Assembly (NCBI GenBank): GCA_002842085.1
Contig: PHCA01000041.1
Span: 1-41,162, forward strand
Length of the DNA stretch: 41,162 bases
Reading direction: 5' to 3'
From: Chloroflexi bacterium HGW-Chloroflexi-1
Lineage (GTDB): Bacteria > Chloroflexota > Anaerolineae > CG2-30-64-16
A model generated the notes under the pieces. That model worked only from the letters and a program-made list of their open reading frames with translations, ran no database searches and had not been told where the DNA came from. Made by a program: the position numbers and the translations under genes. Below, piece by piece: positions 8,946-40,203 of this stretch. Within the stretch, counting starts at the first letter, position 1. Each line of letters opens with the position of its first letter.

Positions 8946-11339
8946 ATGCACGAAGAGCTGTTGGCCGGACTGAACCCGGCCCAGTTGGAAGCGGTGACTA
9001 CGATCCAGGGGCCCGTGCTGGTGCTGGCCGGCCCGGGTTCGGGCAAAACGCGCGTGCTGGCTCACCGCGTGGCCTATCTGCTGCGGGCGGTTGGCGCGCA
9101 CCCGCGCTCGGTGCTGGCGGTGACCTTCACCAACAAGGCCGCTCAAGAGATGCGCACACGCGTCAACCGGCTGCTCAACGAGACCGTGCCCACCAGCACC
9201 GGTTGGCGCGGGCTGACCCTCGGCACGTTCCACAGCATCTGCGCGTACGTCTTGCGCCAGGAGGCCCCCGCGGCCGGGCTCAACCCCAACTACGTGATCT
9301 ACGACGCCGGGGAGCAGTTGACCGCCGTACGCCAGACGCTGCGCGATCTGAAGCTGGACGACAAGCTCTACCGGCCGGAGGCGATGCGCGCGGCCATCTC
9401 CCGCGCCAAGAACGAGCTGATCCGGCCGGACGCCTTTGTGGCTGACAGCTACTGGGCCGAGATCGCCCGCCGGGTCTACGTCCGTTACGAAGAGATCATG
9501 ACGGCCAACGGCGCGCTGGACTTCGACGACCTCTTGGCCCGCACCGTGTACCTGCTGCACGATCAGCCCACGGTCCTGGAACACTATCGCGGACGGTACG
9601 CCTACCTGCTCGTCGACGAATTCCAGGACACCAACACCGCGCAGTACGAACTGGTGCGGCTGCTGGCCGGCAAAACGCACAACCTGTTTGCTGTAGGAGA
9701 CGAGGACCAGTCAATTTACGGCTTCAGGGGCGCCGACTACCGCAATGTGCGGCGTTTCCGAGAGGATTTCCCGGAGGCGAAGGTGATCTTGTTGGAGCAA
9801 AACTACCGCTCCACCGAGACGATCCTGGACACGGCCAACGCCATCATCACCCGCAACGTGCACCGCACCCCGAAGAAGCTGCGCACCCAACGCGGCCGCG
9901 GCGCTGAGGTGACGGTGCATGAGGCCTATGACGAAACGGACGAAGCCGCGTTCGTCTCGAACACCATCCAACGCCTGGTGTCCACCGGCCAGGCCCGGCT
10001 GGGTGACTGTGCGGTGATGTATCGCACCAACGCGCAATCGCGGCCGCTGGAAGACGCCTTCGTGAGCCGCGGGATGCCCTACCGGCTGGTCGGCGGCACC
10101 CGTTTCTACCAACGCCGCGAGATCAAGGATGCGCTGGCCTACTTGCGGCTGGTGCACAATCCCGCCGACAACATCGGCCTGAGCCGGGTGATCAACGTGC
10201 CGACGCGCGGGATCGGGAGCAAGACCCTCGAGACGTTGGCGACGTGGAGCGAACAACTGGGGGTGCCCATGACCGGCGGCCTGGCGCTGGTGGCAGGAGA
10301 TCTCAAGAGCCCGGCCCCGCTGGCCGAGGCGCTGGCGCGCTTCCCCGAGCCCCCCGAACACCCCTTCGGACGGGCCGCCCAGCGGGCGCTGCTCGCCTTC
10401 CACCGCATGTTGGCCGGCTGGTTGGCCGCCCGCGATGGGTTGACCGTCGCGGACCTGTTGGACCGGATCACCGAGGAGTCGGGCTACGCGACCTCGCTGC
10501 GCGACGGCACGGAAGAAGGCGAAGACCGCTGGAACAACCTGCAGGAGCTGCGGACCGTGGCCGCCCAGTACGATGAGTTCCCCCCCGACCTGCGGCTGAC
10601 CGCGTTCCTGGAAGAGGTCGCGTTGGTCTCCGATCAGGACGAACTGATCGAGGAGGAGGACCGGGTCACCCTGCTCACCCTGCACGCGGCCAAGGGGCTG
10701 GAGTTCCCGGTTGTATTCCTCGTAGGATTGGAGGAGAACATCTTCCCGCACAGCCGCAGCCTGGAGGATCCCGACCAGATGGAGGAGGAACGCCGGCTGA
10801 TGTACGTGGGGGTCACCCGGGCCAAGGACCGCCTGTACGCGGTGCGCGCCTTCCGCCGCATGCTCTACGGTCGCGGCCAAGTCAACGAGCCATCGCGATT
10901 TCTGAAGGATATCCCCGGCGTGCAGAGCGGGCCCGGCAAGGCCAGGCGGAATGCGGGCAGCTACGGCGGCTTCGCCGGGGGCGACGCCGAAGGACGTGTT
11001 GGCGCGGCGTTGGGCCGCGCAAAAGGTGGAGGAAGCGCTGCTAACGACGAAACCGGTTTCGGTTTTCAGTCGGCGGCGGCTAAACGGGGCCCATCGGGCG
11101 GCGCGAAGTGGTCTCCGGGCGCGTATCGACCGGCCTCGGATGAAGAACCAGTCCAGGCTCAAGCCCGCCAGACGCAGTTCGAACCCGGAGATCGCGTCGA
11201 CCACGGCCTGTTCGGGCCGGGCGTCGTGCTCAAATCCGAGCTGACCGCGGGCGATGAGGAAGTGACTGTGACGTTCGCGGGCAAAGGCGCCAAGACGCTG
11301 TTGGCGAGTTTCGCCAGGCTGCGGAAGATCGGCCAATAG
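8946..11339 (+). CDS. pcrA: ATP-dependent DNA helicase, UvrD/PcrA family
   Basis: AGGAG lies 5 nt upstream of the ATG. Walker A AGPGSGKT, LLVDEFQDTN, FAVGDEDQSIYGFRGA, VMYRTN, LLTLHAAKGLEFPVVFL, YVGVTRA. The C-terminal segment GDRVDHGLFGPGVV is Tudor-like. Confidence 0.95.
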   Translation: MHEELLAGLNPAQLEAVTTIQGPVLVLAGPGSGKTRVLAHRVAYLLRAVGAHPRSVLAVTFTNKAAQEMRTRVNRLLNETVPTSTGWRGLTLGTFHSICAYVLRQEAPAAGLNPNYVIYDAGEQLTAVRQTLRDLKLDDKLYRPEAMRAAISRAKNELIRPDAFVADSYWAEIARRVYVRYEEIMTANGALDFDDLLARTVYLLHDQPTVLEHYRGRYAYLLVDEFQDTNTAQYELVRLLAGKTHNLFAVGDEDQSIYGFRGADYRNVRRFREDFPEAKVILLEQNYRSTETILDTANAIITRNVHRTPKKLRTQRGRGAEVTVHEAYDETDEAAFVSNTIQRLVSTGQARLGDCAVMYRTNAQSRPLEDAFVSRGMPYRLVGGTRFYQRREIKDALAYLRLVHNPADNIGLSRVINVPTRGIGSKTLETLATWSEQLGVPMTGGLALVAGDLKSPAPLAEALARFPEPPEHPFGRAAQRALLAFHRMLAGWLAARDGLTVADLLDRITEESGYATSLRDGTEEGEDRWNNLQELRTVAAQYDEFPPDLRLTAFLEEVALVSDQDELIEEEDRVTLLTLHAAKGLEFPVVFLVGLEENIFPHSRSLEDPDQMEEERRLMYVGVTRAKDRLYAVRAFRRMLYGRGQVNEPSRFLKDIPGVQSGPGKARRNAGSYGGFAGGDAEGRVGAALGRAKGGGSAANDETGFGFQSAAAKRGPSGGAKWSPGAYRPASDEEPVQAQARQTQFEPGDRVDHGLFGPGVVLKSELTAGDEEVTVTFAGKGAKTLLASFARLRKIGQ

Positions 11340-11340
11340 C

Positions 11341-11627
11341 AGATGGCAAATGGCAAATGGCGGATGGCAGATGGCGGATGGCAGATGGCGGATGGCAGAT
11401 GGCGGATGGCAGATGGCGGATCGCAGATGGCGGATGGCAGATGGCAGATGGCAGATGGCGGATGGCAGATGGCAGATGGCGGATGGCAGATGGCAGATGG
11501 CGGATGGCAGATGGCAGATGGCGGATGGCAGATGGCAGATGGCAGATGGCGGATGGCGGATGGCGAATAGCAGTGGCAAACCGGCAATCGCAAATCTGAA
11601 ATCGCAAATCGCAAATCGCGACCTTCG
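11341..11627. repeat. Heptamer tandem arrays: (GGCAAAT/GGCRGAT) about 33 units, then (AATCGCA) about 6 units
   Basis: Read directly. Starts 2 nt after the pcrA TAG stop and generates the spurious MADGRWQ ORFs. Confidence 0.97.
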
Positions 11628-16067: not shown

Positions 16068-16112
16068 GTCCCACCAGCCCGAGCAAGCAGACACGGCCAG
16101 GATACTTGACAC

Positions 16113-18218: not shown

Positions 18219-18246
18219 GGCAAATGGCAAATGGCAAATAGGAAAT
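18219..18246. repeat. Heptamer array (GGCAAAT) x3-4
   Basis: Begins at the nucleotide after the S8 peptidase TAG stop. Same unit as the first units after the pcrA stop. Confidence 0.9.
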
Positions 18247-18720: not shown

Positions 18721-18822
18721 CCGCGGCAGACACAGACGTTCATCAGCACCGATGTCCTCCCGCACGTTTATGACAACGGCGTCAAGGTCAAGTTCGGTGA
18801 CTTGGCGGGAACGCCATCCGGG

Positions 18823-20787: not shown

Positions 20788-23700
20788 TCACCCCTCCCCC
20801 ATTGTGGACAGACGTTGTGCAAAGGCCGCGGCCAGAGCGTAGCCATCACCCGACAGCCGGGTCACCTGGCAACCGGCCGCCCGCAACGTCCCCTCCGCGG
20901 TCGCCGCCATCTGATCGCCCACGATGATTACCTCCGCGGCCTGAGCAGCTTCATCCAGGCTGAAGCCGCCGCTGGCCCCGATCCGGCGTAGATAACGCGT
21001 GGCCAATGCCAGCGCCAGGCGCGCTTCCGCGTCCCCGGCCGGCCCGCCCCCGCCTTCGGGCGGTGACCCAAAAAGCAGATAGTGCGCCAAAGGTTTGCGC
21101 GGCCCGGGGGGCAAGTTGATGTCTTGGGTCAACGTGGCGTCCTCGGCCAGGCGGATGTCGGTGACCAGCGGCTCACCATCGCCCGGTGGGCCGCCCACCG
21201 CCAGCGTGTAGACGCCGCCGGCCAATCGAGCGAACCGGAACGCGCCCGCACTGTCGGTCTGCGTCCGGGCGACTTCCTGCCCCTGGCTGAGCAGCAGCAC
21301 CAGGCGGTCGGGTTGAGGCACGCCGTTCGCCAGCACCCGGCCCTGGATCACCCCGCGCGGGCCCGAGCCGCCCCACAACACGTCGCACACCTGTTCCCGC
21401 TGGCCGTCCAACACGATGCCGCCCGCCACCTCGCCCATGCCCGCCGCCTGCAACGAGTAGATACCGGCCGGCAGGTTGGCGAACCGGTACGTGCCGTCGG
21501 CCGCGGTGTGGGCCTGCGTCACGATCAGCCCCTCCCGGCGCAGGATCATCAGGATATCGGGCTGGGGTTTGCCCGCGCCGTCCGCGACCCGGCCGCGGAT
21601 CACGCTGCGCTGGCCCCGGGCCAGGTCGATGGGCGCCAGTTGCAGGCTGTTCTCGCCGGTCAACTCCAGGTCGGGCAAAACCTGATCGGCCACCTCCAGC
21701 CGGTACAGGCCGGGTGGCAAGCCCTCGAACGCGAAGCCCCCGGCGGGATCCAAGGGGGCCTGGCGCGTCCAGCCCCACGCCAGCGGCGCGTAGAGCACCG
21801 CGACCAACCCATCGGGCGGATCCAGGACCCGGCCGCTCAAGCGGCTGCGCAGCGGGAAGATCAGCCGGTAGAGCCCGCCCGCTTCCAGTTTGATTTCGTC
21901 GGCGATGACACCGATCCCGGCCAGCTCCAGCCGATAGCTGCCCGGCGCCAGATCGGGGAAGGCAAAGCTGCCATCTTCGCCCAAGGCCATTTCCTGCGCC
22001 CCGGCGACGCCGGTCAGCTTGATCTTGCGGCCGGGCTGCCCGCCGGGCGCCGACCCTTCGGCTGTGCTCAGGACAAGCCCGTCCAACCGGGTCGGGCTGG
22101 CCACCGTCTGCAAACGGAAATCGACCTGGTAAGTGATCGGCTGGCCGGCGCGGCCGGGCACGTTGGCGGTGTCCAGGTCGTCAGCCACCTCGCTGGGCCA
22201 GTCCCCCTGGATCACCCGGATGCTGAAGACGCCGGGGGTGTTCAGGAACTCATAGCGGCCGGCCGGCTTGATTGGATCGCGGCCGGTGGTCGTGGTCGGG
22301 AAAGTGGCGCCGGGCGCGGCGCTGTGCCAGACCATCTGAAGTTTGATGCCGTTCAGCGGCACACCGTCGATGTCCGATACCGTGCCGTAGAAAAGGCGTC
22401 GCCCGGCGGTCTCGGCTTCAGGTAACAGGCGCCGCTGGGTGACCGCGTACCGATACCCGGCCGGCGTCCCGGTGGTGAGCTTGATGTTCTTGGTCGCCCA
22501 TCCATCCAGGGCGATCCCCGCCACGGTGATGCCCGGGATCGAGAGTTTGTAGCTCCCCAGTGGCAGGCCCGAGAACCGAAAACCGCCATCGGCGTCGGTG
22601 AGGGTCTCGCCGATCGATGCGCCCCGCGATGGGCCGCCATCTCGCCACAATGTCACGGGGATGCCCGCGCGCGGGGCGTCGGTGTAATCCAGAACCTTGC
22701 CGGTCAGTGCGCTGCTGCGGCCGCCGGCCAACCGGATAAGAACCGGCAACCCGGGCTCCGGCGCGGCGGTCACCCCCCGGCGCACGATGCCCCAAGGCGC
22801 CACGGCCAGATCGTAGATGCCCGGCGTCAAGCGCTCCAGGCGAAACGCACCATCGTCTGCCGACGTCGCGCTGGCGACGACCTGATCCCCGGCCCGGAGA
22901 TCGACCTGCAAGCTGGGCAGCGGCTCATCGGTGTCGGCGCGCAGCAATTGGCCGGCCACCACAGCCTGTTTGATCTGCGGCGCCACCTGGCTGGGCATGG
23001 CCTTGACGGCCGCCACCACCGGTAACTCACCGCTCAAGTTGAAGTCGGTGTTCCACCAGTCGCTGTACCAGGACTGGCTCTCCCAGCCGGGCGCCATGAA
23101 GCCCAGGCGGTAGTTGCCCAACAGCCAGTAACACATGGTAAAGTAACTGTCCGGACAACGGATGCCGTGAATCTCCCGACCGCCCTGCATGAAGTCGTTG
23201 ATCGCGACGACCCACCCGGCATGCGTCGTCGGATCCAGCCGGGGATAGCGTTGATCGTCCTTCCAGCCTACCACCGGTCCGCCTTCGGTGCTGATGATCG
23301 GCACTGTGTGGCCCAGGGTCTGGAAGAGCATGTCGTCCATCAGATAAAACGCCAGGAAACAGGTCGCATCATCGACCAGGGTATCCCCGGGGTTCTTATC
23401 CGCCGCTCGCCACTGGTTGATCAGCTCGCGGGGGCGGCCCTCCCAGGCCCACGGCCCGAGCCGGTCGTACTCCTCCTGACTCACCGGCACGCCCTCCTGG
23501 TTGACGCTGTCGTAGGGATAGTCGAGCGGGTGATTGAGGGTGTAGTTGTGGATGGCCACCCACGCGCCCTTGTCGAACAGGTCGGCGCGGCCCTTATCCA
23601 CGACGCGCTGCACGGGGTTGAATCGGCTGCTGATCCCCATCGCCGGCAGCGCGGGCAGACCACCCAGGGCGATGACCTTATCCGCGTCGATGATGAAATT

Positions 23701-24090
23701 GTCGATGACGACGTCGAGCCAGTCGGCGGGCATGCGGCCGTTCTTCCATTCAGCGGACAGGTCCGGCTCGTTGTTAGTCTCGAAGTAGCGCACCCCGGCA
23801 TCGATCAACTGCCTGAGGGCGGCCTCTTCCCGCCCGCCGATGTGGCCGGGATTGGGCTCCAACCGGTAGAGCCGCACGATGGGCATGATGTCGGCGACCA
23901 GCAACCGCCGGCACAACTCCAGCGACGACCCGCCGCCATCGTCCATCAACTTGATCCACTTGATGTGCATGGCTTGGAGCTCGCTGATCCAAAAGTCCAA
24001 CGCCGCGCCGGTGGGGTGATAGACCGACGCGGACCAGTGGACGCCGCGCCGGTTATCGTCTTTGGGACGGGGGAAATCTTCGATGCGCAT
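20788..24090 (-). CDS. Signal-less GH-like TIM-barrel protein with about 8 carboxypeptidase-regulatory-like repeats and the shared C-terminal module
   Basis: ATG 24090 with AGGAGG 6 nt upstream. N-terminal domain with YFETNNEPD and PIISTEGG (clan GH-A-like acid/base and nucleophile contexts). Repeats such as DADGGFRFSGLPLGSYKL. C-terminal segment KPLAHYLLFGS...GFSLDEAAQAAEVIIVGD. The ORF stays open upstream to 24267 through the repeat array. Confidence 0.8.
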   Translation of the reverse strand: MRIEDFPRPKDDNRRGVHWSASVYHPTGAALDFWISELQAMHIKWIKLMDDGGGSSLELCRRLLVADIMPIVRLYRLEPNPGHIGGREEAALRQLIDAGVRYFETNNEPDLSAEWKNGRMPADWLDVVIDNFIIDADKVIALGGLPALPAMGISSRFNPVQRVVDKGRADLFDKGAWVAIHNYTLNHPLDYPYDSVNQEGVPVSQEEYDRLGPWAWEGRPRELINQWRAADKNPGDTLVDDATCFLAFYLMDDMLFQTLGHTVPIISTEGGPVVGWKDDQRYPRLDPTTHAGWVVAINDFMQGGREIHGIRCPDSYFTMCYWLLGNYRLGFMAPGWESQSWYSDWWNTDFNLSGELPVVAAVKAMPSQVAPQIKQAVVAGQLLRADTDEPLPSLQVDLRAGDQVVASATSADDGAFRLERLTPGIYDLAVAPWGIVRRGVTAAPEPGLPVLIRLAGGRSSALTGKVLDYTDAPRAGIPVTLWRDGGPSRGASIGETLTDADGGFRFSGLPLGSYKLSIPGITVAGIALDGWATKNIKLTTGTPAGYRYAVTQRRLLPEAETAGRRLFYGTVSDIDGVPLNGIKLQMVWHSAAPGATFPTTTTGRDPIKPAGRYEFLNTPGVFSIRVIQGDWPSEVADDLDTANVPGRAGQPITYQVDFRLQTVASPTRLDGLVLSTAEGSAPGGQPGRKIKLTGVAGAQEMALGEDGSFAFPDLAPGSYRLELAGIGVIADEIKLEAGGLYRLIFPLRSRLSGRVLDPPDGLVAVLYAPLAWGWTRQAPLDPAGGFAFEGLPPGLYRLEVADQVLPDLELTGENSLQLAPIDLARGQRSVIRGRVADGAGKPQPDILMILRREGLIVTQAHTAADGTYRFANLPAGIYSLQAAGMGEVAGGIVLDGQREQVCDVLWGGSGPRGVIQGRVLANGVPQPDRLVLLLSQGQEVARTQTDSAGAFRFARLAGGVYTLAVGGPPGDGEPLVTDIRLAEDATLTQDINLPPGPRKPLAHYLLFGSPPEGGGGPAGDAEARLALALATRYLRRIGASGGFSLDEAAQAAEVIIVGDQMAATAEGTLRAAGCQVTRLSGDGYALAAAFAQRLSTMGEG

Positions 24091-24108: not shown

Positions 24109-24231
24109 TATGGTATGGTATTGGGTATTTGGGTATTGGGTATTGGGTATTGGGTATTTGGGTATTGGGTATTTGGGTATTGGGTATTTGGGTATTGGGT
24201 ATTGGGTATTGGGTATTTGGGTATTGGGTGT
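24109..24231. repeat. Tandem array of TGGGTAT / TGGGTATT units, about 16 units; minus-strand sense is (A)ATACCCA
   Basis: Read directly. Lies between the minus-strand TATAAT box (24289-24284) and the RBS/ATG at 24090. Confidence 0.95.
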
Positions 24232-24292: not shown

Positions 24293-24493
24293 CAATTTGA
24301 AATGGGCGCAATTGCTTATCTCCCTGGGGATGTATCTTCTCGATTTTCCGGGGGATCGCTGGCTGTGGCCGGATTATCGAAAGGATATCTGGGGACCATT
24401 ACCGCCCCGCATCACCAGCCCCATTCACGGGGCGTCGCTCTTGAGCCCGGCGGCTTTAGCGCCGGGCGACCGCGCGCCGGGCGGCCAGCCATC

Positions 24494-28375: not shown

Positions 28376-29613
28376 ATGAACGAGTGAACCAAACCGCCTT
28401 TGCTAAGGTTCCATCCGAGAATTTGCGCCCAATTTGCTGGGGCCGGTCTCCCGACCGTGCCCCCTGGCACCCCCTGGCTCGGTCAGGAGACCGGCCAGAG
28501 CATGTTCGGATAGATTCTAAACGGCCGCTGGGGATCATCCTGCTGTGCGCGGTGCTGTTGGCCGCCGTCAGCCTGAGCTGTTCGGTGGGACAGGTCCTGG
28601 TGGGCCGCTCCACGTCCACCGTGCCGACCGCCACCAAGACCCCGCGACCCACGTTCACGCCGTTGCCGGGCGCCTTCACACCTTTGCCGACGTCCGCCAG
28701 CGCGGTCCGAGGCAGTCTGCCGCCAGGCGTCACCGTTGTGCCCCCCACCGAGGCAGCCCCGCTGGCCCAGCCCGGCGAAACCGGCCGCACCAACCTGATC
28801 CTTTTCGCCACCGAGACGCCGGCGCCCACGCCCACCCGCGTGCCGACCGACACCCCCGGGCCGACGCCCACGCCAACCCCCGACGTCGAGACCAACCGCC
28901 CGACGCGCGCGACCGGCCCGCGGGTTTTGCCGACGCCGTACGTCGTGGTAAACTCTACGACGCTCAACGCGCGCCGCGGGCCGGGTGAAACGTTCGATCT
29001 GTTAGGCCAGGTAAAACAGGGGGATGAGCTGCTCGTCCTCGGGCGCACCCCTGAAGGGGATTGGTGGCAGGTGTGCTGCATCGCCAATCAGCCGGGCTGG
29101 GTCGCCGCCGAGCTGGTCACAGCCAGGGGGCCGGTTGACGACGTGCCGGTGCTCACCCCGGCGCCGACGCCCGTCCCGACCTCGCGGCCGCTACCGACCG
29201 ATACGCCGGGACCACTGCCCACCCCGCTGCCGCCGTTCGACATCGCGCGCGGCCCCGAGTTCCCGATCCAGCGGGATACCGGCATCATGACCATCTGGGT
29301 GAAGGTGTACGAGGGGAGCGCGCCCTACGAGAAGCCGCTATCCGGCTATATCCTGAAGGTGTCCCACGACGGCGTGGACGTCAGCAGCCCGGAGCAATCG
29401 TTCGGCGACGCGCCGTTCGACAAGACCGCCAAGACCGAAGGAGAGCGCGAGTACAACCTGAAGTTCGAGATGTACGACGCCAGCGAGGCGGATTGGCAGA
29501 TCTACCTGGCCAAACCGGATGGCTACCGGGTCTCGCCGATCAGGGAGTTCACGACCAAGGGGGATTCGTATCGTAATCTGGTCGTCTACGTCGCATACTG
29601 GCTGGCGCGCTAA
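28372..29613 (+). CDS. Lipoprotein: PT-rich linkers, SH3b domain, C-terminal domain (paralog 2 of 3); start uncertain
   Basis: Signal-like KRPLGIILLCAVLLAAVSLSCS begins near 28519. SH3b-like LNARRGPGETFDLLGQVKQGDELLVLGRTPEGDWWQV. The only in-frame ATG/GTG/TTG upstream (28372, 28384, 28423) lie before a palindromic repeat copy (28441-28497). Confidence 0.55.
   Translation: MNERVNQTAFAKVPSENLRPICWGRSPDRAPWHPLARSGDRPEHVRIDSKRPLGIILLCAVLLAAVSLSCSVGQVLVGRSTSTVPTATKTPRPTFTPLPGAFTPLPTSASAVRGSLPPGVTVVPPTEAAPLAQPGETGRTNLILFATETPAPTPTRVPTDTPGPTPTPTPDVETNRPTRATGPRVLPTPYVVVNSTTLNARRGPGETFDLLGQVKQGDELLVLGRTPEGDWWQVCCIANQPGWVAAELVTARGPVDDVPVLTPAPTPVPTSRPLPTDTPGPLPTPLPPFDIARGPEFPIQRDTGIMTIWVKVYEGSAPYEKPLSGYILKVSHDGVDVSSPEQSFGDAPFDKTAKTEGEREYNLKFEMYDASEADWQIYLAKPDGYRVSPIREFTTKGDSYRNLVVYVAYWLAR
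28441..28497. repeat. Copy of the palindromic element, subfamily with TCTCCTGACC in place of TCTGTGACC
   Basis: GGCCGGTCTCCCGACCGTGCC ... GGCTCGGTCAGGAGACCGGCC. Both arms carry the variant, so pairing is kept. Confidence 0.85.
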
Positions 29614-29628
29614 GACGACATCACCTGT

Positions 29629-29728
29629 GTGGTGCGTAGTGCGTGGTGCGTGGTGCGTATTCCGTAGCCCATGTCTGCACATTTTCCGCAGTACGCAATC
29701 CGCAATTCGCAATCCGCAATCCGCAATC
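29629..29728. repeat. Two heptamer arrays: (GTGGTGC) x5 (29629-29663) and (CGCAATC) x5 (29694-29728)
   Basis: Read directly. Lies between SH3b lipoprotein paralogs 2 and 3. The second array ends 2 nt before the AGGAGG RBS. Confidence 0.93.
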
Positions 29729-29746
29729 CAAGGAGGAAGACAAGCA

Positions 29747-30688
29747 ATGCACTTTCGTTTCTGGGCCTTGATCATTATTGTGATGCTGTTGGTGGCCGTT
29801 GCTGGATGCGCTGGCGGCCAGTCGAGCGTCGCGCCGACGCCGGTTCCAACCAAGACGTTACGGCCGATATTCACCGCTACGCCCGCAGTGCCGACCCCCG
29901 TGCCGCCCACGGCCACACCGCAGATCCCGCCCACGGCCACCCCGGAGCCAACCGCGGCCGAACCACCCACGCCCGAACCGCCGACCGCGGCGCCGGCTAC
30001 GGCCACACCTCAACCGGCGTCGTTCACCGTGACCAGCGCCACCGTCAACATCCGTAACGGGCCCGGGACCAACTACGTTCGGATCGGGCAAGTGCGCCAA
30101 GGCCAGACGTTCGAGATCACGGGCAAGAACCCGGCCGGCGATTGGTGGCGATTCGACTACAACGGCAAAATTGCCTGGGTTATCGGCCGGCTGGTCAGCG
30201 CCAACGCGACCGGGAGCGTCCAGGTAGCGTCCGACATCCCGGCCCCGCCGCCCACCGCGCGGCCGCAGCCGACGGCCAAACCCGCGACCGCCCAACCGAC
30301 CCCGCCGCCCGCGCCGCCGCTACGGTTCGCGCTCACGGGCAAATCGCAACTGCGGCTCAACACCAACGATTTTGTGACCGTCTGGTGTTTCGTCTTCAAT
30401 CGGTCCGAGACCGCCCTGGTCCCCGGTACATTGCGCGTCACGCGCGATGGGGCTGTCATCAAAGAGCAAGCCTTCACCGGAGGACTCGAGTCAGCGCACG
30501 GCGATCCGGGCATTTCGGGCAGCGAGTTTCTCTACAATCCAGGCTGCAAGGTCGAAATCCAGCCGGCCCAGGACGGCAACTACAGCGCCTATCTGATCCA
30601 GGGTGGCCAGCAAGCCTCTGACGTCTTCAATTTCAACGTCAGCGGCACGACCAACCGGACCGCGATCATCGAATGGAAAGAGAAGTAG
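29747..30688 (+). CDS. Lipoprotein: PT-rich linkers, SH3b domain, C-terminal domain (paralog 3 of 3)
   Basis: AGGAGG (29731-29736) lies 10 nt upstream of the ATG. MHFRFWALIIIVMLLVAVAGCAG (lipobox VAGC). SH3b-like VNIRNGPGTNYVRIGQVRQGQTFEITGKNPAGDWWRF. Confidence 0.78.
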   Translation: MHFRFWALIIIVMLLVAVAGCAGGQSSVAPTPVPTKTLRPIFTATPAVPTPVPPTATPQIPPTATPEPTAAEPPTPEPPTAAPATATPQPASFTVTSATVNIRNGPGTNYVRIGQVRQGQTFEITGKNPAGDWWRFDYNGKIAWVIGRLVSANATGSVQVASDIPAPPPTARPQPTAKPATAQPTPPPAPPLRFALTGKSQLRLNTNDFVTVWCFVFNRSETALVPGTLRVTRDGAVIKEQAFTGGLESAHGDPGISGSEFLYNPGCKVEIQPAQDGNYSAYLIQGGQQASDVFNFNVSGTTNRTAIIEWKEK

Positions 30689-33624
30689 GGACGGCTATCG
30701 GTCGCCAGAAACCAGGTTTCTCTAAGAAACCTGGTTTCTGGCAACGAGCAAGTGCGATCCGGTTTCGGCGCGAAGCCGGGTTTTTGATCTTGGTCGCCCT
30801 GCTTGGATTGCTCCTGCGCGTCCTCCGCCTGGATTTTCAGCCCCTCTGGTGGGACGAAGGCTATTCCGTCTGGTTCGCCACCCACCCGCTGGGCCAGATG
30901 GCCGCGCTGACGGCCCAGGACATCCACCCGCCCCTCTACTACGCGCTGCTCCACGGCTGGACTACCCTGCTGGGGACCGGGCCGATCGCGTTGCGGCTGA
31001 TGTCCGTGGCCTTCGGCGCGCTGGCGATCCCCGCGATCTACCTGGCCGGGCGACGATTGCTGAACCGGCGGGCCGCCCTCCTGGCCGCCTTGCTGTTGGC
31101 GATCAACCCCCTGCACATCTACTACAGCCAGGAAGTGCGCATGTACGGGCTGGTGGCGCTACTGAGCGCGGGGATCCTGGCGACGATCGGGGGGTGGGCG
31201 AATTGCCGATTTCGGATTTCGGATTTCGGATTTCGAATTACTCCTTGTCACCAGCCCCGCACGGTGTTAGCGGCTGGCGCCAGGCCGGTCACCTTGTCAT
31301 CAGTCCCCTACGTGCTCCTGGCGACCGCCGCGCTGTACACGCAGTATTATGCCGTTTTCCTGCCGGTCGGCCTGACGCTGTACGCGCTGTGGCGGTGGCG
31401 GCGCGATCCGGCCGCGCTGGGGCGGTGGCTGGCCGCACAGATTGCCGTCGCCGTGCTCTACCTGCCGTGGGTGATCTATGCGGCGCCCAGGCTGGCGCCC
31501 TACGTCAGCCAGAAGGTGGTGGCGGACGCTGACAGGCCGCTCGGGTTGTTAGCCTACTTTGGCCGGCACCTGGCCGCGTTCCTGGCCGGCCACCTGGAAG
31601 GCCCGCTGACCGCATGGTGGCCGGTTGTGCTGGCGCCGATAGGGATATCAGGTATTTGGTATTGGCGTTGGTGGAAAGTTGGCCGGCGCAGCGGAAATTC
31701 AGCCCATCCAATACCTGATACCCAATACCCAATACCCAATACCCAATACCCAATACCCAATACCCAATACCCAATACCCAATACCCAATACCCGGTCATG
31801 CTCGCCACTGTCACCGGCGTCGCGCTCCTGCTCGGCTGGCTCATCGGCCTCACCTACCCATTCTTCCCGGAGCGAGGCGAGCGATTGCTGTTGCTGGCGC
31901 TACCGCCGTTCATCCTTCTGGTCGCGGCCGGGCTGGATGCGCTGTGGTCGCGGTCGCGGCTGGCTGCCTGGGGCACAATCGCGCTGATCGGCGCGGTCGC
32001 CGGGGCGGGCCTGTGCGCGTTCTACACGACGCCCCGCTACCCCACCGACGACTACCGGCCGCTGATCGCCCACACGGTCGAGCTGGGTTTGCCCGAGGAC
32101 ACCGTCTTCTGCGTCTACCCGTGGCAGGTCGGCTACTGGCGTAGCTATGACTGGCGTAGCTATGCCAGTAGCCGACCTGCCGGCCCGAACGCCGTCCTGA
32201 CCCCCGACGCGACCTGGTCCCCGGCCGTGTCGGACGTGAACGCCTGGTATGGGCCGGGCACCCGGCTCAGCGCGTGGGCGTTCGCGCCGGGAGGGCAGCC
32301 CGTGAACGCGGCCACCGTGCGTTTCCCGCTGCCTGGCGTTGGCGCGGTGAAACTGGTAGGCGTCACGGCCGCGCTCGATCCCGTGCCCGCTGCGAACGCG
32401 GTGACGCCGGTCACGTTGCGTTGGGCCGCGGCCGCGCCGCCGCCGATCCTGGGTGTCAGCGTTCGTCTGGTCGATGACCTGGGCCAGATTTGGGCGCAGC
32501 ACGATTACGAGCCGCTGGGCGGCCTCTCCGCTCCGGCACAAACCAGCGCGCAGGGCACATCATCGGCAGAAGCCTGGCAAGCGGCCTGGGAGGCTGAGGA
32601 TCGCCTGGGCCTGCTCATCCCCGCGGGCACACCGCCCGGACGCTACGCGGTCGAACTGGCCGTGCGCCCAAAGGACGAGGCTCGCTCGCTGGACGCGTTT
32701 ACCCCCGCTGGCGTCGCACTGGGCCCAGCGGTCCCCCTGTTCGAGATCACCGTTGCCCCGGCGGACCGGGTCCTGGGTCGGGAGCGCCTGCCCATCGGCG
32801 TCAACCGATCGACCGACATGGAGGACGGCTTGCGTTTCCTCGGCTACAGCGCGGCCGAGGCCGTGGCCACGCCGGGTGAGCTGCGCAAGATCAGCCTCTT
32901 CTGGCAGACCACCGCCGCGCTGGCGGCCGACTACACGGCTTTCGTACAACTGCTGGACGCGGATGGCGGGGTGGCGGCCGGTTGGGAAGCGCCGCCCGGC
33001 GCCGGTTACCCGACGACGCAGTGGGCGCCGGACACGCTGGTCCGCACCCAGGCCGCGTTCCGGGTCCCCGCGTCCCTACCCGCCGGCCGCTACCGGCTGA
33101 TCGCGGGCCTGTTCAACCCGGCCGATGGCGCGCGCTTGCGGACAGCCGCTGGCGCCGACCATCTGGCCCTGGGCCCGATCACCCTGCGCGGCCGGCCCCA
33201 CGAGATGACCCCACCTGGCCCGGCCCACGTCGCGGACGTGCGCTTCGGGGACGTGGGCCGGCTGGTTGGCTATGATCTGCCCGAGACCGGCAGTGCGGCC
33301 GGCGCGGCGCTGCCACTCACCCTGTACTGGCAGGCAACCGGTGCGACCGACCGGGCATACACCATATTCGTGCACCTGCTGGACCCGGCCGGCGCGCTCC
33401 GCGGCTTCGGGGATGGCGAGCCGGGCGGGGGTCAGTTCCCCACCACGGGCTGGCTGCCCGGGGAGTACCTGGCCGACCGCCACGAGGTCCGCATCGTCGC
33501 GGACGCGCCTCCTGGCGAGTATCGATTAGCCGTCGGCCTGTACGACCCCGCGACCGGCCAGCGGCTGCTCACGGCCGACGGGGCGGATCAGGTGGTGCTG
33601 GACATCTCGGCGCCAATCCGATAA
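30673..33624 (+). CDS. Membrane glycosyltransferase, family 39 (ArnT/PMT-like), with a large duplicated C-terminal extracytoplasmic domain; start uncertain
   Basis: LRVLRLDFQPLWWDEGYSVW...DIHPPLYYALLHGW is the usual GT39/PMT_2 N-terminal signature, with many TM segments. ATG 30673 overlaps the upstream gene, and a 17-bp hairpin (30705-30741) lies after it. An alternative TTG at 30784 would start just before TM1. Confidence 0.82.
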   Translation: MEREVGTAIGRQKPGFSKKPGFWQRASAIRFRREAGFLILVALLGLLLRVLRLDFQPLWWDEGYSVWFATHPLGQMAALTAQDIHPPLYYALLHGWTTLLGTGPIALRLMSVAFGALAIPAIYLAGRRLLNRRAALLAALLLAINPLHIYYSQEVRMYGLVALLSAGILATIGGWANCRFRISDFGFRITPCHQPRTVLAAGARPVTLSSVPYVLLATAALYTQYYAVFLPVGLTLYALWRWRRDPAALGRWLAAQIAVAVLYLPWVIYAAPRLAPYVSQKVVADADRPLGLLAYFGRHLAAFLAGHLEGPLTAWWPVVLAPIGISGIWYWRWWKVGRRSGNSAHPIPDTQYPIPNTQYPIPNTQYPIPNTQYPVMLATVTGVALLLGWLIGLTYPFFPERGERLLLLALPPFILLVAAGLDALWSRSRLAAWGTIALIGAVAGAGLCAFYTTPRYPTDDYRPLIAHTVELGLPEDTVFCVYPWQVGYWRSYDWRSYASSRPAGPNAVLTPDATWSPAVSDVNAWYGPGTRLSAWAFAPGGQPVNAATVRFPLPGVGAVKLVGVTAALDPVPAANAVTPVTLRWAAAAPPPILGVSVRLVDDLGQIWAQHDYEPLGGLSAPAQTSAQGTSSAEAWQAAWEAEDRLGLLIPAGTPPGRYAVELAVRPKDEARSLDAFTPAGVALGPAVPLFEITVAPADRVLGRERLPIGVNRSTDMEDGLRFLGYSAAEAVATPGELRKISLFWQTTAALAADYTAFVQLLDADGGVAAGWEAPPGAGYPTTQWAPDTLVRTQAAFRVPASLPAGRYRLIAGLFNPADGARLRTAAGADHLALGPITLRGRPHEMTPPGPAHVADVRFGDVGRLVGYDLPETGSAAGAALPLTLYWQATGATDRAYTIFVHLLDPAGALRGFGDGEPGGGQFPTTGWLPGEYLADRHEVRIVADAPPGEYRLAVGLYDPATGQRLLTADGADQVVLDISAPIR
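30705..30741 (+). terminator. Perfect 17-bp hairpin CCAGAAACCAGGTTTCT-CTA-AGAAACCTGGTTTCTGG (no U-tract)
   Basis: Read directly. Lies 17 nt after the stop of SH3b paralog 3 and inside the longest GT39 ORF. Confidence 0.5.
31207..31241 (+). repeat. Heptamer array (GGATTTC) x5 inside the GT39 CDS
   Basis: Read directly. Translates as ..NCRFRISDFGFRIT.. within the open frame. Confidence 0.9.
31710..31793 (+). repeat. Heptamer array (AATACCC) x12 (10 perfect units) inside the GT39 CDS
   Basis: Read directly. 84 nt = 28 codons, translating as [30 protein letters not shown]. Confidence 0.95.
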
Positions 33625-36142: not shown

Positions 36143-37804
36143 TTACTCCCACTCGATCGTCGCGGGCGGCTTCGAGCTGATGTCGTAGACCACCCGGTTG
36201 ACCCCGGACACTTCGTCGACGATGCGATTGCTCACCTTTGCCAGCAGGTCGTAGGGCAGACGCGCCCAATCGGCGGTCATGAAATCGTCGGTGGTGACGG
36301 CGCGCAGGCCGATTGTGTCGGCATAGGTGCGGCCGTCCCCCATCACGCCAACAGAGCGCACCGGCAGCAGTACAGCGAACGCCTGAGACGTGGCCCGGTA
36401 CAGCCCGGCGGCCCGCAACTCCTCCAGGAAGATGGCATCGGCGGCGCGCAGCGTCTCCAGCCGCTCCCCCGTGACCTCGCCCAGGATGCGGATGGCCAGC
36501 CCCGGCCCGGGGAACGGGTGCCGCCAGACGATCTCCTCCGGCAAGCCCAGCGCGGCGCCCACGGCCCGCACCTCGTCCTTGAACAGATTGCGCAGCGGCT
36601 CGATGAGCTGGAAGGTCATGTCCTCAGGCAGTCCGCCGACGTTGTGATGCGTCTTGATCGTGCGCGCGGTGCCCTGTTCCGCGCGGCTGGCCGACTCGAT
36701 CACGTCGGGGTAGAGGGTGCCCTGGGCCAGGAAAGTGGCGTGTGTGCCGCAATTGCTGCGCAATTGCTTAGAAGCGCCGCTCTGTTCGCCCGCGATCAGG
36801 GCCTCGGTGATCTCGAACGTCCGCACGAACCGCGCTCCGATCCGCTTGCGCTTGACCTCCGGGTCGGTCACCCCGGCCAGGTCGGCCAGGAACTCCTCGC
36901 TGGCCTCCACCGTGATCAACTGCATGCCCATGTGCTGCTCGAAAGTCTCGACGACCTGCTCGGCCTCATCCTGGCGCAGCAGCCCATGGTCCACGAAGAT
37001 ACACGTGAGCCGGTCCCCCACCGCCCGGTGGATCAACGTCGCCGCGACCGCGGAATCCACCCCGCCGCTCAACCCGCAGACCACCGACCCGCCCCCGACC
37101 TGGGCGCGAATCTCCGCCACCGCCTCCGCGATGAAGTTGGCCGGCGTCCAATCCGGCGTGCAACCGCAGATATCTACCGCAAAATTGCGCAGGATGTCCC
37201 GGCCCTGCGGCGTGTGCTGGACCTCGGGGTGGAACTGCACGCCGTAGATGCCGACCGCCACGTTGCCCATGGCCGCGATGGTGGCTCTTGCGGGCATGGG
37301 GTACTGGGTATTGGGTATTGGGTATTGGGTATTGGAGACGGCCAGCGGAACGAAGGACGGCGGCAGGGCGGTCACGTGGTCGCCGTGGCTCATCCAGACG
37401 GCTAATGGCAGATTGCAGATTGCAGATTGCAGATTGGTAAAGAGCGGATTGGGAGCATCGGTCAAGGTGATTTCGGCAGGGCCGTATTCGCGACGGGCGG
37501 CGGGGTCAACGGCGCCGCCGAGGGCGCGGGCCAGCAGTTGCATGCCATAGCAAATACCTAATACCGGTTTCCCCGCGGCCAGGACGAACGGCGGCAGGGT
37601 CGGCGCACCCGGCTCGTAGACGCTGGCCGGGCCGCCGGAGAGGATATAGCCCTGCGGATCGAGGCCAGCGAACCGCTCCGCGGGCGCGTCCCACGGGATC
37701 AGCTCGCAGTAGACGTGCTGCTCGCGCAGCCGCCGTGCGATCAGTTGGCTGGTCTGCGAGCCGTAGTCGAGGATGGCGATGGTGTCGTGGGCTGCCTGGC
37801 TCAT
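36143..37804 (-). CDS. guaA: GMP synthase (glutamine-hydrolysing)
   Basis: [30 protein letters not shown] (GATase). LSGGVDSAV (PP-loop), [40 protein letters not shown] (C-terminal end). ATG 37804 overlaps the upstream stop (ATGA). Confidence 0.95.
37295..37336 (-). repeat. Heptamer array (AATACCC family, plus strand TATTGGG) x6 inside the guaA CDS
   Basis: Read directly. 42 nt, translating as [14 protein letters not shown], just upstream of the conserved YGVQFHPE block. Confidence 0.93.
37408..37435 (-). repeat. Heptamer array (plus strand GCAGATT) x4 inside the guaA CDS
   Basis: Read directly. Translates as NLQSAICNL, immediately before the conserved WMSHGD. Confidence 0.93.
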
Positions 37805-38139
37805 GGCGCCGCGTCTCCCGCGTCGAGCGTCTCTGCGCGCCATTCCGGCGCTTCCTCGCGCACGGCGACCCGTGCGGCTGTGGTCAGCGCGCGCAAAGGG
37901 TAATGGCGGAGCAGGTGAATGGAGTAGCCGGTTTTGACCAAAGTATCTATCTGCTTTTGCCCCATACTATCCACGGCATTTAGGATGGCGTCATCATCCC
38001 AGAAATCCTGGCTGGGCGCCATCATGCAGATGTCCGCAGATTGCCGGCCACCAGGATAGGCCTCCAGTTTCACACCGGGAAGCCGAGTCTGGAGGTCGCG
38101 CATGAACTCGTCAACCATCATCTGGAGTTTCTTGTTCAT
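37801..38139 (-). CDS. Small protein coupled to the HEPN gene; possibly a degenerate minimal-nucleotidyltransferase-like partner
   Basis: ATGA start/stop overlaps at both ends (38136-38139 and 37801-37804). Lower GC than its surroundings. [20 protein letters not shown] loosely parallels the GS..G....SDIDLLV motif of MNT proteins, but the second Asp is missing. Confidence 0.45.
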
Positions 38140-39120: not shown

Positions 39121-40203
39121 TCAAGACACCCCTCTCGTCTTCGACATTTGCCAATGCACCTCGGGATCCCGCCAATGTCGCAGCCGCCAGACCCACCCGG
39201 CCGGGTAGCCGACCATCTTCGCCACGTCGCCCACCGCGCGGATGGCCGGGATCAGCGCAATGGCCCGGAGCTGGTCGACGGGGGCGAGATTGAGCAGGTG
39301 GGCGTGCAGCCGGCGGAAGGGGGTGCGGCAGTAGACGACGGCGCCGCCGGCCAATCCCAGCAACCATAGCGGGCTGTGGGCGATGCTCAAGATCAACACG
39401 GCAGGCAGGGCAACGAGATACGTGGCATAACGGATGGCGTGGCGCTTCCGCCAGAGGTCGGCCTTGCCATCGCCACGGGCGTAGCGGTAGTATTGCTTGA
39501 AGTAAGCGCGCATGGAGCCCCGCGGCCGGAAATGGGCCACCGCGCCCGGCGCCCACACGAAAGGCCCGGTCGCGTCTTGCAACCGGAAGTCAAAGATCAG
39601 GTCCTCGCAGTAGTCCAGCCACTCCGGGTAGCCACCCGCGGCCGCCCACGCCTCCTTGCGAAACGCCACCGACCGGCTGGATGGCAGGAAGGCGCCTGGA
39701 TCGACGTCACCGATCGCTGGCAACACCGTCGCGCCCATCGCAGCCTCGAACGGGGTCTGCGGGTCGGGGACGAAGAAGCCGGCGACGGATTGGGGATTGG
39801 GGATTGCGGATTGCGGATTGCGGATTGCGGATTTGCGATTTGCCGATTGGTCGATTTGCTGATTCGCTGATTCGCTGATTTGCCCGCTTTCCAACGGCGC
39901 GACCAACGCAGCGAGCCAGGCTGGCTCCAACCACACCCCCGCGTCGGTGGATGCGATCACGTCGCCGGTGGCAGTCCGGATGGCCACGTTGCGGCCGCGG
40001 GAGATGTTGGCGCCTGGTTCGATCAACACGCGCAGCTTCAGCCGGTCCGCGTACGATTCGATCACCGCGACGGTGTTATCGCGCGAGCCGCCGTCCACGA
40101 TCACGACCTCGTCGGGTTGCCGGGTTTGAGCCACCAGGCTGTCCAGCATCCGGCGGATCGATTCCCCTTCGTTGAGCACGGTACAAATGACGCTGACGCG
40201 CAA
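39121..40203 (-). CDS. Family 2 glycosyltransferase with C-terminal TM segments
   Basis: TTG start with GGAG upstream. VSVICTVLNEGESIRRMLDSLVAQT....EVVIVDGGSRDNT...ISRGRNVAI......IASTDAG (GT2 DxD-type core). Confidence 0.85.
   Translation of the reverse strand: MRVSVICTVLNEGESIRRMLDSLVAQTRQPDEVVIVDGGSRDNTVAVIESYADRLKLRVLIEPGANISRGRNVAIRTATGDVIASTDAGVWLEPAWLAALVAPLESGQISESANQQIDQSANRKSAIRNPQSAIPNPQSVAGFFVPDPQTPFEAAMGATVLPAIGDVDPGAFLPSSRSVAFRKEAWAAAGGYPEWLDYCEDLIFDFRLQDATGPFVWAPGAVAHFRPRGSMRAYFKQYYRYARGDGKADLWRKRHAIRYATYLVALPAVLILSIAHSPLWLLGLAGGAVVYCRTPFRRLHAHLLNLAPVDQLRAIALIPAIRAVGDVAKMVGYPAGWVWRLRHWRDPEVHWQMSKTRGVS
39787..39884 (-). repeat. Degenerating 7-8 nt array (plus strand GGATTGG/GGATTGC/GATTTGC/GATTCGCT) inside the GT2 CDS
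   Basis: Read directly. Translates as SGQISESANQQIDQSANRKSAIRNPQSAIPNPQS between GT2 core segments. Confidence 0.9.

Follow-up and report, generated by a model that had tools for sequence, protein, structure and literature searches.

Introduction

Slipped-strand ON/OFF switching at SSRs is known from Haemophilus, Neisseria and Campylobacter. In H. influenzae, heptamer tracts within ORFs were proposed as mediators of phase variation (hmw1A of strain PittAA, HI1369 homologue) (PMC2651432). Phase-variation SSRs are reported to be enriched near the 5' end of genes (Lin & Kussell, as cited in PMC4692102). Heptamer SSRs are also over-represented genome-wide in some large high-GC genomes of non-pathogens, where they are mostly intergenic; in Nostoc, 32% of them are intragenic, and the G-rich strand is under-represented on the coding strand (PMC4692102, PMC4679880).

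A preliminary description of a 41,162-nucleotide contig of Chloroflexi bacterium HGW-Chloroflexi-1 (below, the window; all positions refer to this whole stretch) reported two in-frame heptamer arrays in a membrane glycosyltransferase gene and offered two readings, a passively tolerated loop insertion and a slipped-strand ON/OFF switch. The sequence, coordinates and translation of the arrays are reproduced here. We assign a probability of about 0.8 to an extended form of the first reading: the arrays likely belong to a genome-wide population of STRR-like slippage repeats, whose coding copies are kept only in frame and in permissive loops.

Host gene and protein

The host gene (30673..33624, plus strand) encodes a 983-aa membrane glycosyltransferase of the GT-C fold, identical to PKO23189.1. 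The Pfam PMT_2 (PF13231) match has a score of 38.5 bits at the gathering threshold of 26.1, and in silico removal of the first of the two array-bearing loops (loop 1) extends it from profile positions 2–73 to 2–159 of 160. In the AF2 model (pLDDT 83.5, pTM 0.77), 11 predicted TM helices precede a C-terminal domain of tandem beta-sandwiches, about 530 aa long. A PDB sequence search with an 84-sequence profile yielded no meaningful match to any solved structure, hence a fold search was needed. Foldseek matched the model to ArnT (5f15), Pmt4 (9i5k) and STT3, identifying the GT-C module, with TM-scores of about 0.5 when normalised to the target. The acidic motif D61/E62 in the first external loop is nearly invariant among the orthologs (at least 90% conserved). 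The protein thus has the architecture expected of GT-C enzymes: its N-terminal module crosses the membrane many times, the first external loop bears an acidic motif, and the C-terminal domain is soluble.

The gene had been labelled GT39, and its orthologs are named "glycosyltransferase family 39 protein" at NCBI. The evidence makes it a PMT_2/GT-C membrane glycosyltransferase but stops short of GT39 membership as CAZy strictly defines it. The Pfam scan found neither PF02366 (PMT) nor a MIR domain in the host protein, which does not support its assignment to GT39 proper, the Dol-P-Man protein O-mannosyltransferases; PF02366 matches are weak and occur in some orthologs. By fold, ArnT (GT83) and Pmt4 (GT39) are equally similar to it.

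Structure of the two arrays

Array 1 (31207..31241, plus strand) is a GGATTTC heptamer array of about 4.6 units in the TM4–TM5 loop (aa 179–190). It was described as five GGATTTC units; the position is correct, but only three units are perfect, the order being CGATTTC, three GGATTTC and GAATTAC. TRF reports 31208–31239, period 7, 4.6 copies and 96% matches. The array is in frame and translates to NCRFRISDFGFRIT, with the loop peptide RFRISDFGFRI, within a segment of pLDDT below 50 (180–206) between helices 158–179 and 210–223 of the AF2 model. Its unit count is the same in six other assemblies (L001, L086, L002, L084, L085, L087). The rest of loop 1 (31242..31309, plus strand; TPCHQP...PVTLSS) reads as decayed relics (CCTTGTCACC, ACCTTGTCATC) of the octamer CTTGTCAC, and in the orthologs P0014, P0003 and P0009 the LVTLSPCH/LSPRHLVT repeats at the aligned position are expanded or easier to recognise.

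Array 2 (31708..31793, plus strand) is an AATACCC array encoding (NTQYPIP)x4 in the TM8–TM9 loop (aa 346–374). Both the sequence and TRF (31708–31793, 12.3 copies, score 158) agree with the earlier count of 12 units, 10 of them perfect: the core at 31710–31793 consists of AATACCT, GATACCC and ten AATACCC, that is, 84 nt or 28 codons. Translation of the heptamer array in any of the three frames gives the same 7-aa repeat. Residues 341–370 have pLDDT of about 48–54, the flanking helices being 321–341 and 372–394 (AF2). Prediction of the topology, proposed in the preliminary description as a check, thus places both inserts in inter-helix loops.

In the model both arrays are low-confidence coils with R/K-rich flanks, and the helix count up to the C-terminal domain fits the N-in/C-out orientation. 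Both loops would then be cytoplasmic, as judged from the predicted model, the positive-inside rule and general knowledge of GT-C enzymes, with the catalytic loop (WWDEGYS) and the C-terminal domain on the other, periplasmic side. In that case the repeat peptide would not be exposed as a surface epitope.

Four of the seven codons in each repeat of array 2 are rare in the genome (ATA accounts for 2% of Ile codons, CCA for 9% of Pro codons), which suggests that the array originated at the DNA level. A database search with (NTQYPIP)6 returned only spurious ORFs of 50–74 aa, e.g. from Nostoc and Taibaiella, which look like translated intergenic arrays.

Loop variability among orthologs

Comparison with 84 orthologs, another of the proposed checks, demonstrates that the two loops are hypervariable in length, 14–106 aa for loop 1 and 8–76 aa for loop 2 (the TM8–TM9 loop), so that loops as short as 8–14 aa do exist. 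The conserved periplasmic loops are almost fixed in the same set (medians 45 and 44 aa). Stretches with a period of 7 or 8 aa are seen in loop 1 of eight orthologs and in loop 2 of eleven. At the DNA level, TRF analysis of 80 orthologous loci shows that in at least 12 MAGs these two loop positions are occupied by independent arrays, whose units are unrelated to each other. We also considered the arrays as relics of gene fusion boundaries; this was rejected, as orthologs with minimal loops retain the same continuous GT-C architecture.

Unit numbers and the reading frame

The window, L001 and L086, three assemblies of one lineage that are base-identical here, each have 12 units in array 2. In five assemblies of the sister lineage (L002, L083, L084, L085, L087) the site holds six perfect units of AATCCCC (CCAATCC in another register), encoding NPQSPIP in place of NTQYPIP. 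Hence the lineages differ by six units, or 42 nt, the frame is kept, and each lineage is homogenised for a unit variant of its own. Together with the rare codons, this bears out the suggestion that array 2 has expanded recently.

The frameshift arithmetic of the preliminary description was confirmed by simulation. Gain or loss of one or two units truncates the protein at aa 435–492 if it occurs in array 2 and at aa 196–288 if in array 1, while a change by three units in either array preserves the frame. Among the consensus assemblies of 80 orthologous loci there are no array-linked frameshift alleles. The frame is broken at three loci, in all cases outside the arrays: in L076 by an N gap, and in the MFD MAGs L042 and L070 by indels that we suspect to be assembly errors.

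Intergenic arrays do change by one or two units. A TGCTGGA array has six units in L001 and five in L086, which are 99.96% identical, and an array of the GTGCGTA type differs by two units between the window and L085. Since only about one in 18 arrays changed at the L001–L086 divergence, the invariance of array 2 within its lineage is weak evidence. The preliminary description stated that a unit number constant across many independent genomes, with other arrays varying, would speak against its proposal. This pattern is nearly the one observed: the count is invariant within each lineage (three and five assemblies) and intergenic arrays vary, in a comparison of consensus sequences from few independent samples, some possibly shared between assemblies. 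A metagenome scan with the left flank of array 2 retrieved three contigs, all from the sister lineage, and no new unit counts for the lineage of the window.

Repeat population of the window

The window contains 22 arrays of period 7 or 8 (TRF) in 41 kb, about 20 of them beyond the two in the host gene. Non-coding DNA makes up 13.4% of the window and holds 16 of the 22 arrays (binomial P = 3e-10), which typically adjoin stop or start codons, e.g. the stop codons at 11339 and 18219. The dimer AATACCCAATACCC, with at most one mismatch, occurs 23 times, the expectation from shuffles being 0.01. The units are mostly stop-free on both strands. Further period-7/8 arrays are seen in the L001 and L086 flanks.

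The AATACCC unit occurs at three loci of the window. Besides array 2, it forms an in-frame array of 5.3 copies in guaA, encoding the essential enzyme GMP synthase (37299..37335, minus strand), with the unit on the sense strand. This array encodes 12 residues and corresponds to an insert of approximately 12–14 aa relative to PDB 5tw7; guaA of the sister lineage lacks it. The third array of the family (24117..24229, minus strand, 15.4 copies) is upstream of the likely start of the gene 20788..24078 (minus strand) and hence probably non-coding; it is identical in L086.

Two more coding sites were identified. guaA has a second in-frame heptamer, GCAGATT (37408..37436, minus strand, 4.1 copies), and in the sister lineage the site holds a different heptamer, GGTTGCC. 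In the GT2 glycosyltransferase gene (39121..40203), a CGGATTG heptamer and the octamer TTGCCGAT overlap in frame (39786..39884, minus strand), and the Pfam Glycos_transf_2 match stops at aa 107, where the repeat insert starts. The AATCCGC family is found at two loci, 39786 and 29685.

The largest intergenic example, 32 copies of GCAGATG (11339..11564, no strand assigned), begins at the stop codon of the gene 8946..11339. Other intergenic arrays are at 11586, 12637, 12699, 13324, 14691, 14735, 16111, 16215, 18219, 18643, 18680, 29629, 29685 and 36108. An inverted pair of octamer arrays (12630–12775) was considered as a candidate terminator and dropped, as the hairpin is not significant (RNA folding z-score -1.1). 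The Rfam scan of the whole window matched no family.

Preferred and alternative explanations

The claim of a passively tolerated loop insertion fits the low-confidence loops, their hypervariable length in the orthologs, and a repeat family that is mostly intergenic and stays in frame in guaA and the GT2 gene. The mechanism is probably as follows. Heptamer and octamer arrays would arise and resize by replication slippage all over the genome, and selection would purge in-gene copies that break the frame or disturb the folded protein. Surviving coding copies would be in frame and limited to permissive disordered segments, in the host protein the TM4–TM5 and TM8–TM9 loops. A change by a multiple of three units would make a floppy linker longer or shorter and do nothing more, the insert being assumed to be selectively neutral, and with time point mutations would turn the array into ordinary loop sequence.

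The best surviving alternative, though an unlikely one, is that the array is kept for a role, either as a peptide, a proline-rich flexible cytoplasmic linker or docking motif, or as a nucleic acid, a template-strand G-quadruplex (GGGTATT)n or a tract of rare codons that causes transcriptional or translational pausing between transmembrane hairpins. On the complementary strand, array 2 conforms to the canonical G3N4 quadruplex motif, with a minus-strand G4 motif at 31721–31793; relative to the G3N1-7 motif this is a sequence match only, as the ViennaRNA G-quadruplex folding output was uninterpretable. In the GGGNATY repeat class of Rehm et al. (PMC4692102), units bear a G3-4 tract and four or more of them fold into a G4. 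The Nostoc GGGGATT repeat, to which the sister unit is reverse-complementary, forms G4 in vitro (PMC4692102), and the C-rich strand is the sense strand at all three AATACCC loci. The frequency of rare codons and the repeated occupation of the same two loops in many orthologs are also consistent with a role. However, tolerance accounts for this recurrence equally well. Moreover, the loop units of the orthologs are unrelated to each other and mostly without G-tracts; the G3 tract is absent from array 1 and from most other arrays. The peptide differs between the sister lineages, and some ortholog loops are so short (8–14 aa) that an insert is evidently not required.

Less probable still is a contingency locus, in which array 2, and perhaps array 1, would be an evolved slipped-strand ON/OFF switch of a surface-glycosylation enzyme. 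The unit length is not a multiple of three and ten units are perfect, as in hypermutable repeats; a shift by one or two units in array 2 truncates the protein before TM10/11, so that the whole C-terminal domain is lost; envelope glycosyltransferases are a typical phase-variable class; in-ORF heptamer tracts were proposed for this function in H. influenzae (PMC2651432); and the TGCTGGA array shows that single-unit slippage does happen in this organism. However, no OFF allele is seen in the consensus sequences of eight assemblies from two lineages (12 or 6 units), nor any array-linked frameshift at the 80 orthologous loci; the one difference seen at this array is a multiple of three units, while intergenic arrays vary by one or two units. 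The repeats are genome-wide, mainly intergenic and present in the GT2 gene too, rather than specific to contingency genes, and an in-frame AATACCC array is carried by guaA as well, a housekeeping gene whose OFF state would be harmful. The tracts are situated mid-gene, in loops whose length is hypervariable across orthologs, and not near the 5' end. Finally, the organism lives free in groundwater, and for genomes of this kind long SSRs are not associated with phase variation (PMC4692102). Hence we find the switch unsupported. At that, a tract of ten perfect units is intrinsically hypermutable, and thus frameshift variants must arise; whether they are purged or exploited looks the same in consensus assemblies.

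Short-read mis-assembly of the arrays or their unit counts is very improbable. The strain does have assembly trouble at other arrays: near 40446, where the CATTCGCC octamer array lies, L001 shows an N gap and the window a deletion. In addition, the window lacks 114 nt of the host gene that are present in two sibling assemblies. However, over both arrays the NCBI MAG, JGI and ENA assemblies, made separately, are base-identical, and the five sister-lineage assemblies agree with each other. Judging by the ENA contig names (k141, k127), the k-mer used was longer than the 86 nt of array 2, and its unit count is probably unambiguous.

Returning to genome-wide slippage repeats tolerated in permissive loops, one may speculate, as a doubtful extension, that heptamer and octamer arrays are a standing generator of new protein sequence in this Chloroflexota group. 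They would recolonise the same permissive loops, those of essential proteins included, resize by multiples of three units and decay to unique linker, and long tracts would also yield rare glycosyltransferase-null cells, an unselected or incipient phase variation in a free-living subsurface bacterium.

The locus calls for caution, as a non-triplet repeat in a surface-glycosylation gene resembles a phase switch and here is the tip of a genome-wide repeat phenomenon; annotation of the host gene as a contingency locus would be wrong. It also gives a concrete, traceable example of how simple repeats can form protein linkers and alter their length, in disordered loops of a conserved membrane enzyme and in guaA, by frame-preserving steps and then decay. 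Users of MAGs should expect assembly breaks and strain-level indels at such arrays. Our literature search for heptanucleotide tandem repeats in Chloroflexi found no paper that describes STRR-like heptamer and octamer repeats in Chloroflexota.

Comparison with known systems

The protein resembles ArnT (5f15/5ezm), Pmt4 (9i5k) and STT3/AglB in the N-terminal multi-helix membrane module, the acidic motif of the D61/E62 type, the large extracytoplasmic C-terminal domain and the PMT_2 match. It differs by the lack of a MIR domain, by the tandem beta-sandwiches that make up its C-terminal domain of about 530 aa, and by two expanded disordered loops.

With the SSR phase variation of H. influenzae (PMC2651432) the locus shares an in-ORF heptamer tract, truncation upon a change by one unit, and envelope glycosylation as a typical gene class. 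However, strains of H. influenzae show differences that are not multiples of three and frameshifted alleles, whereas here only multiples of three and no OFF alleles are observed. Moreover, the repeat family of the window is mainly intergenic and present in housekeeping genes too, and the organism is not host-adapted.

The TAACTGA repeats of Beggiatoaceae and cyanobacteria (PMC4679880) are likewise abundant heptamer direct repeats near translational starts, with strand translatability limiting their overlap with genes. They have one favoured unit with forward stop codons, in sets of 2–6, whereas the window has many units, mostly stop-free, in up to 32 copies.

The closest systems are the cyanobacterial STRR, the Nostoc GGGGA(T/C)T and the Xanthomonas GGGAATC repeats (PMC4692102; Mrazek 2007, as cited there and in PMC4679880). 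There, as in the window, tandem 7-nt units occur at many loci in variable copy number, with a strong non-coding bias near start and stop codons, occasional inverted pairs of arrays, a minority of copies in ORFs, and high-GC free-living hosts. Dispersed recurring units, the non-coding bias and copy-number polymorphism between close relatives are all found here, as expected of genome-wide long SSRs of this type. The sister unit AATCCCC matches the reverse complement of GGGGATT exactly, GGGTATT is one base off, and the orientation in the window, with the C-rich strand on the coding strand, agrees with the Nostoc strand bias. On the other hand, the host is a Chloroflexota MAG, many unit families coexist, octamers among them, and most have no G-tracts. 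Unlike in those systems, the same protein loops are occupied in frame repeatedly across orthologs, with arrays apparently decaying into loop sequence.

Arrays in the glycosyltransferase gene

The GT39-like gene (30673..33624, forward strand) is a 983-aa ORF, and the Pfam PMT_2 match of its product, PKO23189.1, exceeds the threshold. It contains two heptamer arrays on the coding strand. Array 1 (31207-31241) reads CGATTTC, three copies of GGATTTC, and GAATTAC (TRF: 31208-31239, period 7, 4.6 copies). Array 2 (31710-31793) is formed by AATACCT, GATACCC and ten copies of AATACCC, with a total length of 84 nt (28 codons; TRF: 12.3 copies, score 158). The sequence, TRF and the ORF translation agree with the preliminary description as to the units, coordinates, in-frame position and encoded peptides of both arrays. 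Its argument that a non-triplet unit would shift the frame also held in simulation, as a change by one or two units in either direction truncates the protein, and a change by three leaves it intact.

The window contains 23 matches to the AATACCC dimer, where shuffled sequences lead one to expect 0.01. The GC content of array 2 is 43-44%, compared to 66% for the genome, and its codons are rare in the genome (ATA, 2% of Ile; CCA, 9% of Pro; AAT, 16% of Asn; CAA, 26% of Gln), which argues for a recent origin at the DNA level rather than for a sequence shaped by translation. The complementary strand, (GGGTATT)n, matches the canonical G-quadruplex motif; a function of the insert as a peptide, a G-quadruplex or a pause site seems unlikely.

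Directly upstream of the gene, at 27197-30688, there are three tandem paralogues encoding proline/threonine-rich SH3_3-domain proteins. Heptamer arrays (29629-29729) separate the second and the third, and the latter shares 16 nt with the start of the glycosyltransferase gene.

Position of the arrays in the protein

The AlphaFold2 model (84 aligned sequences; mean pLDDT 83.5, pTM 0.77) has 11 transmembrane helices and, after them, a beta-rich C-terminal domain. Array 1 corresponds to the low-confidence residues 180-206 between helices 158-179 and 210-223 (the TM4-TM5 loop, loop 1), and array 2 to three short low-confidence stretches within 344-364, between helices 321-341 and 372-394 (the TM8-TM9 loop, loop 2). 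Thus the topology prediction suggested in the preliminary description places both arrays in inter-helix loops. As to the side of the membrane, the N-terminus is rich in R/K, the nearly invariant acidic motif WWDEGYS lies in the first loop, and the flanks of the array loops are arginine-rich; together with the helix count to the C-terminal domain, this indicates that loops 1 and 2 are probably cytoplasmic. In known GT-C enzymes the C-terminal domain is extracytoplasmic, and we infer this step of the topology from that established architecture.

Foldseek matched the membrane module to ArnT (5f15), Pmt4 (9i5k) and STT3/AglB, and for the C-terminal half it returned proteins with tandem beta-sandwiches. 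The glycosyltransferase alignment, run as a profile against PDB sequences, produced no match. The PMT_2 match, confined to profile positions 2-73 in the complete protein, reached 2-159 of 160 when loop 1 was deleted in silico, hence the array-bearing loop interrupts the domain.

Arrays elsewhere in the window

TRF identified 22 arrays with period 7 or 8 in the 41-kb window. According to the GC3-based gene map, 16 of them are in the non-coding 13.4% of the window (binomial P = 3e-10), frequently adjoining stop codons or just 5' of starts. The remaining six are coding and all in frame, two each in the GT39-like gene, guaA and a GT2 gene. The arrays are therefore not special to the GT39-like gene. 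A third AATACCC array (24117-24229, 15.4 copies) precedes the likely start of another gene.

The guaA gene (36143-37807, reverse strand), encoding the housekeeping GMP synthase, contains GGGTATT in 5.3 copies (37299-37335), sharing both the unit and the peptide with array 2, and GCAGATT in 4.1 copies (37408-37436). Compared to the solved GMP synthase 5tw7 (alignment E = 4e-182), the former inserts about 12-14 residues, and the protein also has an additional segment of about 16 aa. The GT2 glycosyltransferase gene (39121-40203, reverse strand) has overlapping in-frame heptamer and octamer arrays at 39786-39884 (…SANRKSAIRNPQSAIPNPQS…), and its Pfam Glycos_transf_2 match is interrupted at residue 107, exactly at the start of the insert.

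The octamer arrays often form adjacent, roughly reverse-complementary pairs of units just 3' of genes (12637-12768, 14691-14766, 16111-16252, 18643-18703). The only pair folded, 12630-12775, was not significantly more stable than shuffled sequences (z = -1.1). The region 18219-18740 is repeat-dense and apparently non-coding. It contains three copies of GGCAAAT, a 17-nt direct repeat, a palindromic 16-nt unit CCCTTTCGTTGAAAGG in 2.4 copies, inverted octamer arrays ACGCAAAG/CTTTGCGT, and a block of about 27 nt (ATAGCGCGGCCTCCCGCCGCAACCAAA) with copies at 18318 and 18560; Rfam yielded no match for it.

Orthologues

The glycosyltransferase has more than 1,000 homologues. In the orthologue alignments the periplasmic loops have near-constant lengths (medians 45 and 44 aa); among 84 orthologues, loop 1 spans 14-106 aa and loop 2 spans 8-76 aa, P0104 and P0112 having array-site loops of 8-14 aa. 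Clear periodicity of 7 or 8 residues is seen in loop 1 of eight and loop 2 of 11 of these proteins, examples being HPVTQSP with LVTLSPCH (P0014), QYAVRNT (P0019) and HSTFHIR (P0038). At the DNA level, TRF analysis of 80 orthologous loci showed that in at least 12 MAGs the same two loop positions carry independent arrays, whose units are unrelated (including loci L004, L010, L011, L012, L025, L037, L042, L066, L068, L074, L078 and L081). No array in the 80 loci has a frame break. Breaks were seen at three loci, caused by an N gap in L076 and by non-array indels in L042 and L070.

In the window protein, loop 1 retains decayed copies of the CTTGTCAC octamer (TPCH...PVTLSS). Orthologues have expanded versions of this octamer, and in the window it also makes up intergenic arrays. 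This suggests that, with decay, arrays turn into ordinary loop sequence.

Unit numbers in assemblies and lineages

Five loci (L002, L083, L084, L085, L087; source samples SRR1534387 and Ga0100377/391/396) represent a sister lineage, with nucleotide identity to the window of about 87-89% in the 5' portion of the gene and 83-85% downstream of it. Array 1 there has 4.6 units, as in the window. The array-2 site holds six CCAATCC-variant units, one of which is substituted in L084 and L085, so that the lineages differ by 42 nt, or six units, and the frame is kept. The unit variant is homogenised inside each lineage, which implies that array 2 has probably turned over since the split. Sister-lineage guaA lacks the NTQYPIP insert, the peptide encoded by AATACCC, and another heptamer occupies its second site. 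Were array 2 an evolved ON/OFF switch, as the preliminary description had offered along with a tolerated insertion, frame-breaking alleles and unit differences other than multiples of three would be expected; the lack of array frame breaks among the 80 loci and the six-unit difference make a switch improbable.

The window's own lineage includes two more assemblies of essentially the same strain, L001 (JGI 3300029891) and L086 (ENA ERZ27239245). Both arrays are base-identical in all three, and an assembly artefact is essentially excluded. The constancy of array 2 within the lineage is by itself weak evidence, since very few arrays have changed within a lineage; the between-lineage pattern and the lack of OFF alleles carry more weight. 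Nor are the samples certain to be independent. An intergenic TGCTGGA array, located past the right end of the window, has six units in L001 (18462-18503) and five in L086 (22030-22064), at 99.96% identity of the assemblies, which is direct evidence of ongoing single-unit slippage in this population. The window and L085 differ by 14 nt, or two units, in an intergenic GTGCGTA-type array. Unlike array 2, the intergenic arrays thus undergo non-3n changes.

Otherwise nearly 100% identical to L001 and L086, the window has three indels: about 36 extra nucleotides flanked by GGGGA repeats (24356-24391), a 58-nt intergenic deletion (27068), and a deletion of about 105 nt (40446) that removes most of an octamer array (CATTCGCC, 11.9 copies), at which L001 has an N gap. 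Within the GT39-like gene, the three assemblies share a perfect 15-nt tandem duplication (32135-32164, …GYWRSYDWRSYASS…) that neither the sister lineage nor the other orthologues have. Further, at about 32236 the window lacks 114 nt (38 codons, ALDAGLARGRVWFPAHLALGAILETRVEAYLAAEAVPF) with many nearly invariant residues, retained in L001, L086 and all orthologues; the model has low confidence exactly at this point (aa 522-533). Either a real strain-level loss that damages the periplasmic domain or an error in the MAG assembly may account for this.

Interpretation and comparison with known heptamer repeats

With a probability of about 80%, the arrays are members of a genome-wide population of slippage repeats, which would survive in the GT39-like gene because they are in frame and sited in permissive, probably cytoplasmic, disordered loops. 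Of the two initial options, the tolerated loop insertion is favoured by the variable loops and genome-wide arrays. In our view the case documents how repeats drive the evolution of loops in Chloroflexota, and it warns against taking non-triplet repeats inside genes for phase-variation switches.

Our literature search found no paper on heptanucleotide tandem repeats in Chloroflexi. Heptamer SSRs are over-represented genome-wide in some large, high-GC, non-pathogenic bacteria (PMC4692102; background PMC4679880). Most of their copies lie in non-coding DNA close to the ends of genes, in some cases as inverted arrays, and a minority is intragenic; within ORFs, the coding strand under-represents the G-rich strand. 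Examples are GGGAATC in Xanthomonas and GGGGA(T/C)T in Nostoc, and such repeats have been traced to the STRR sequences of cyanobacteria (PMC4692102; PMC4679880). Here, the sense strand is the C-rich one at all three AATACCC loci (24117-24229, 31708-31793, 37299-37335), and reverse-complementing the sister-lineage unit AATCCCC gives GGGGATT, the G-quadruplex repeat of Nostoc. On the other hand, heptamer-mediated phase variation inside ORFs was proposed for H. influenzae, where strains differ by non-3n unit numbers and have frameshifted alleles (PMC2651432); the pattern in the GT39-like gene is the opposite.
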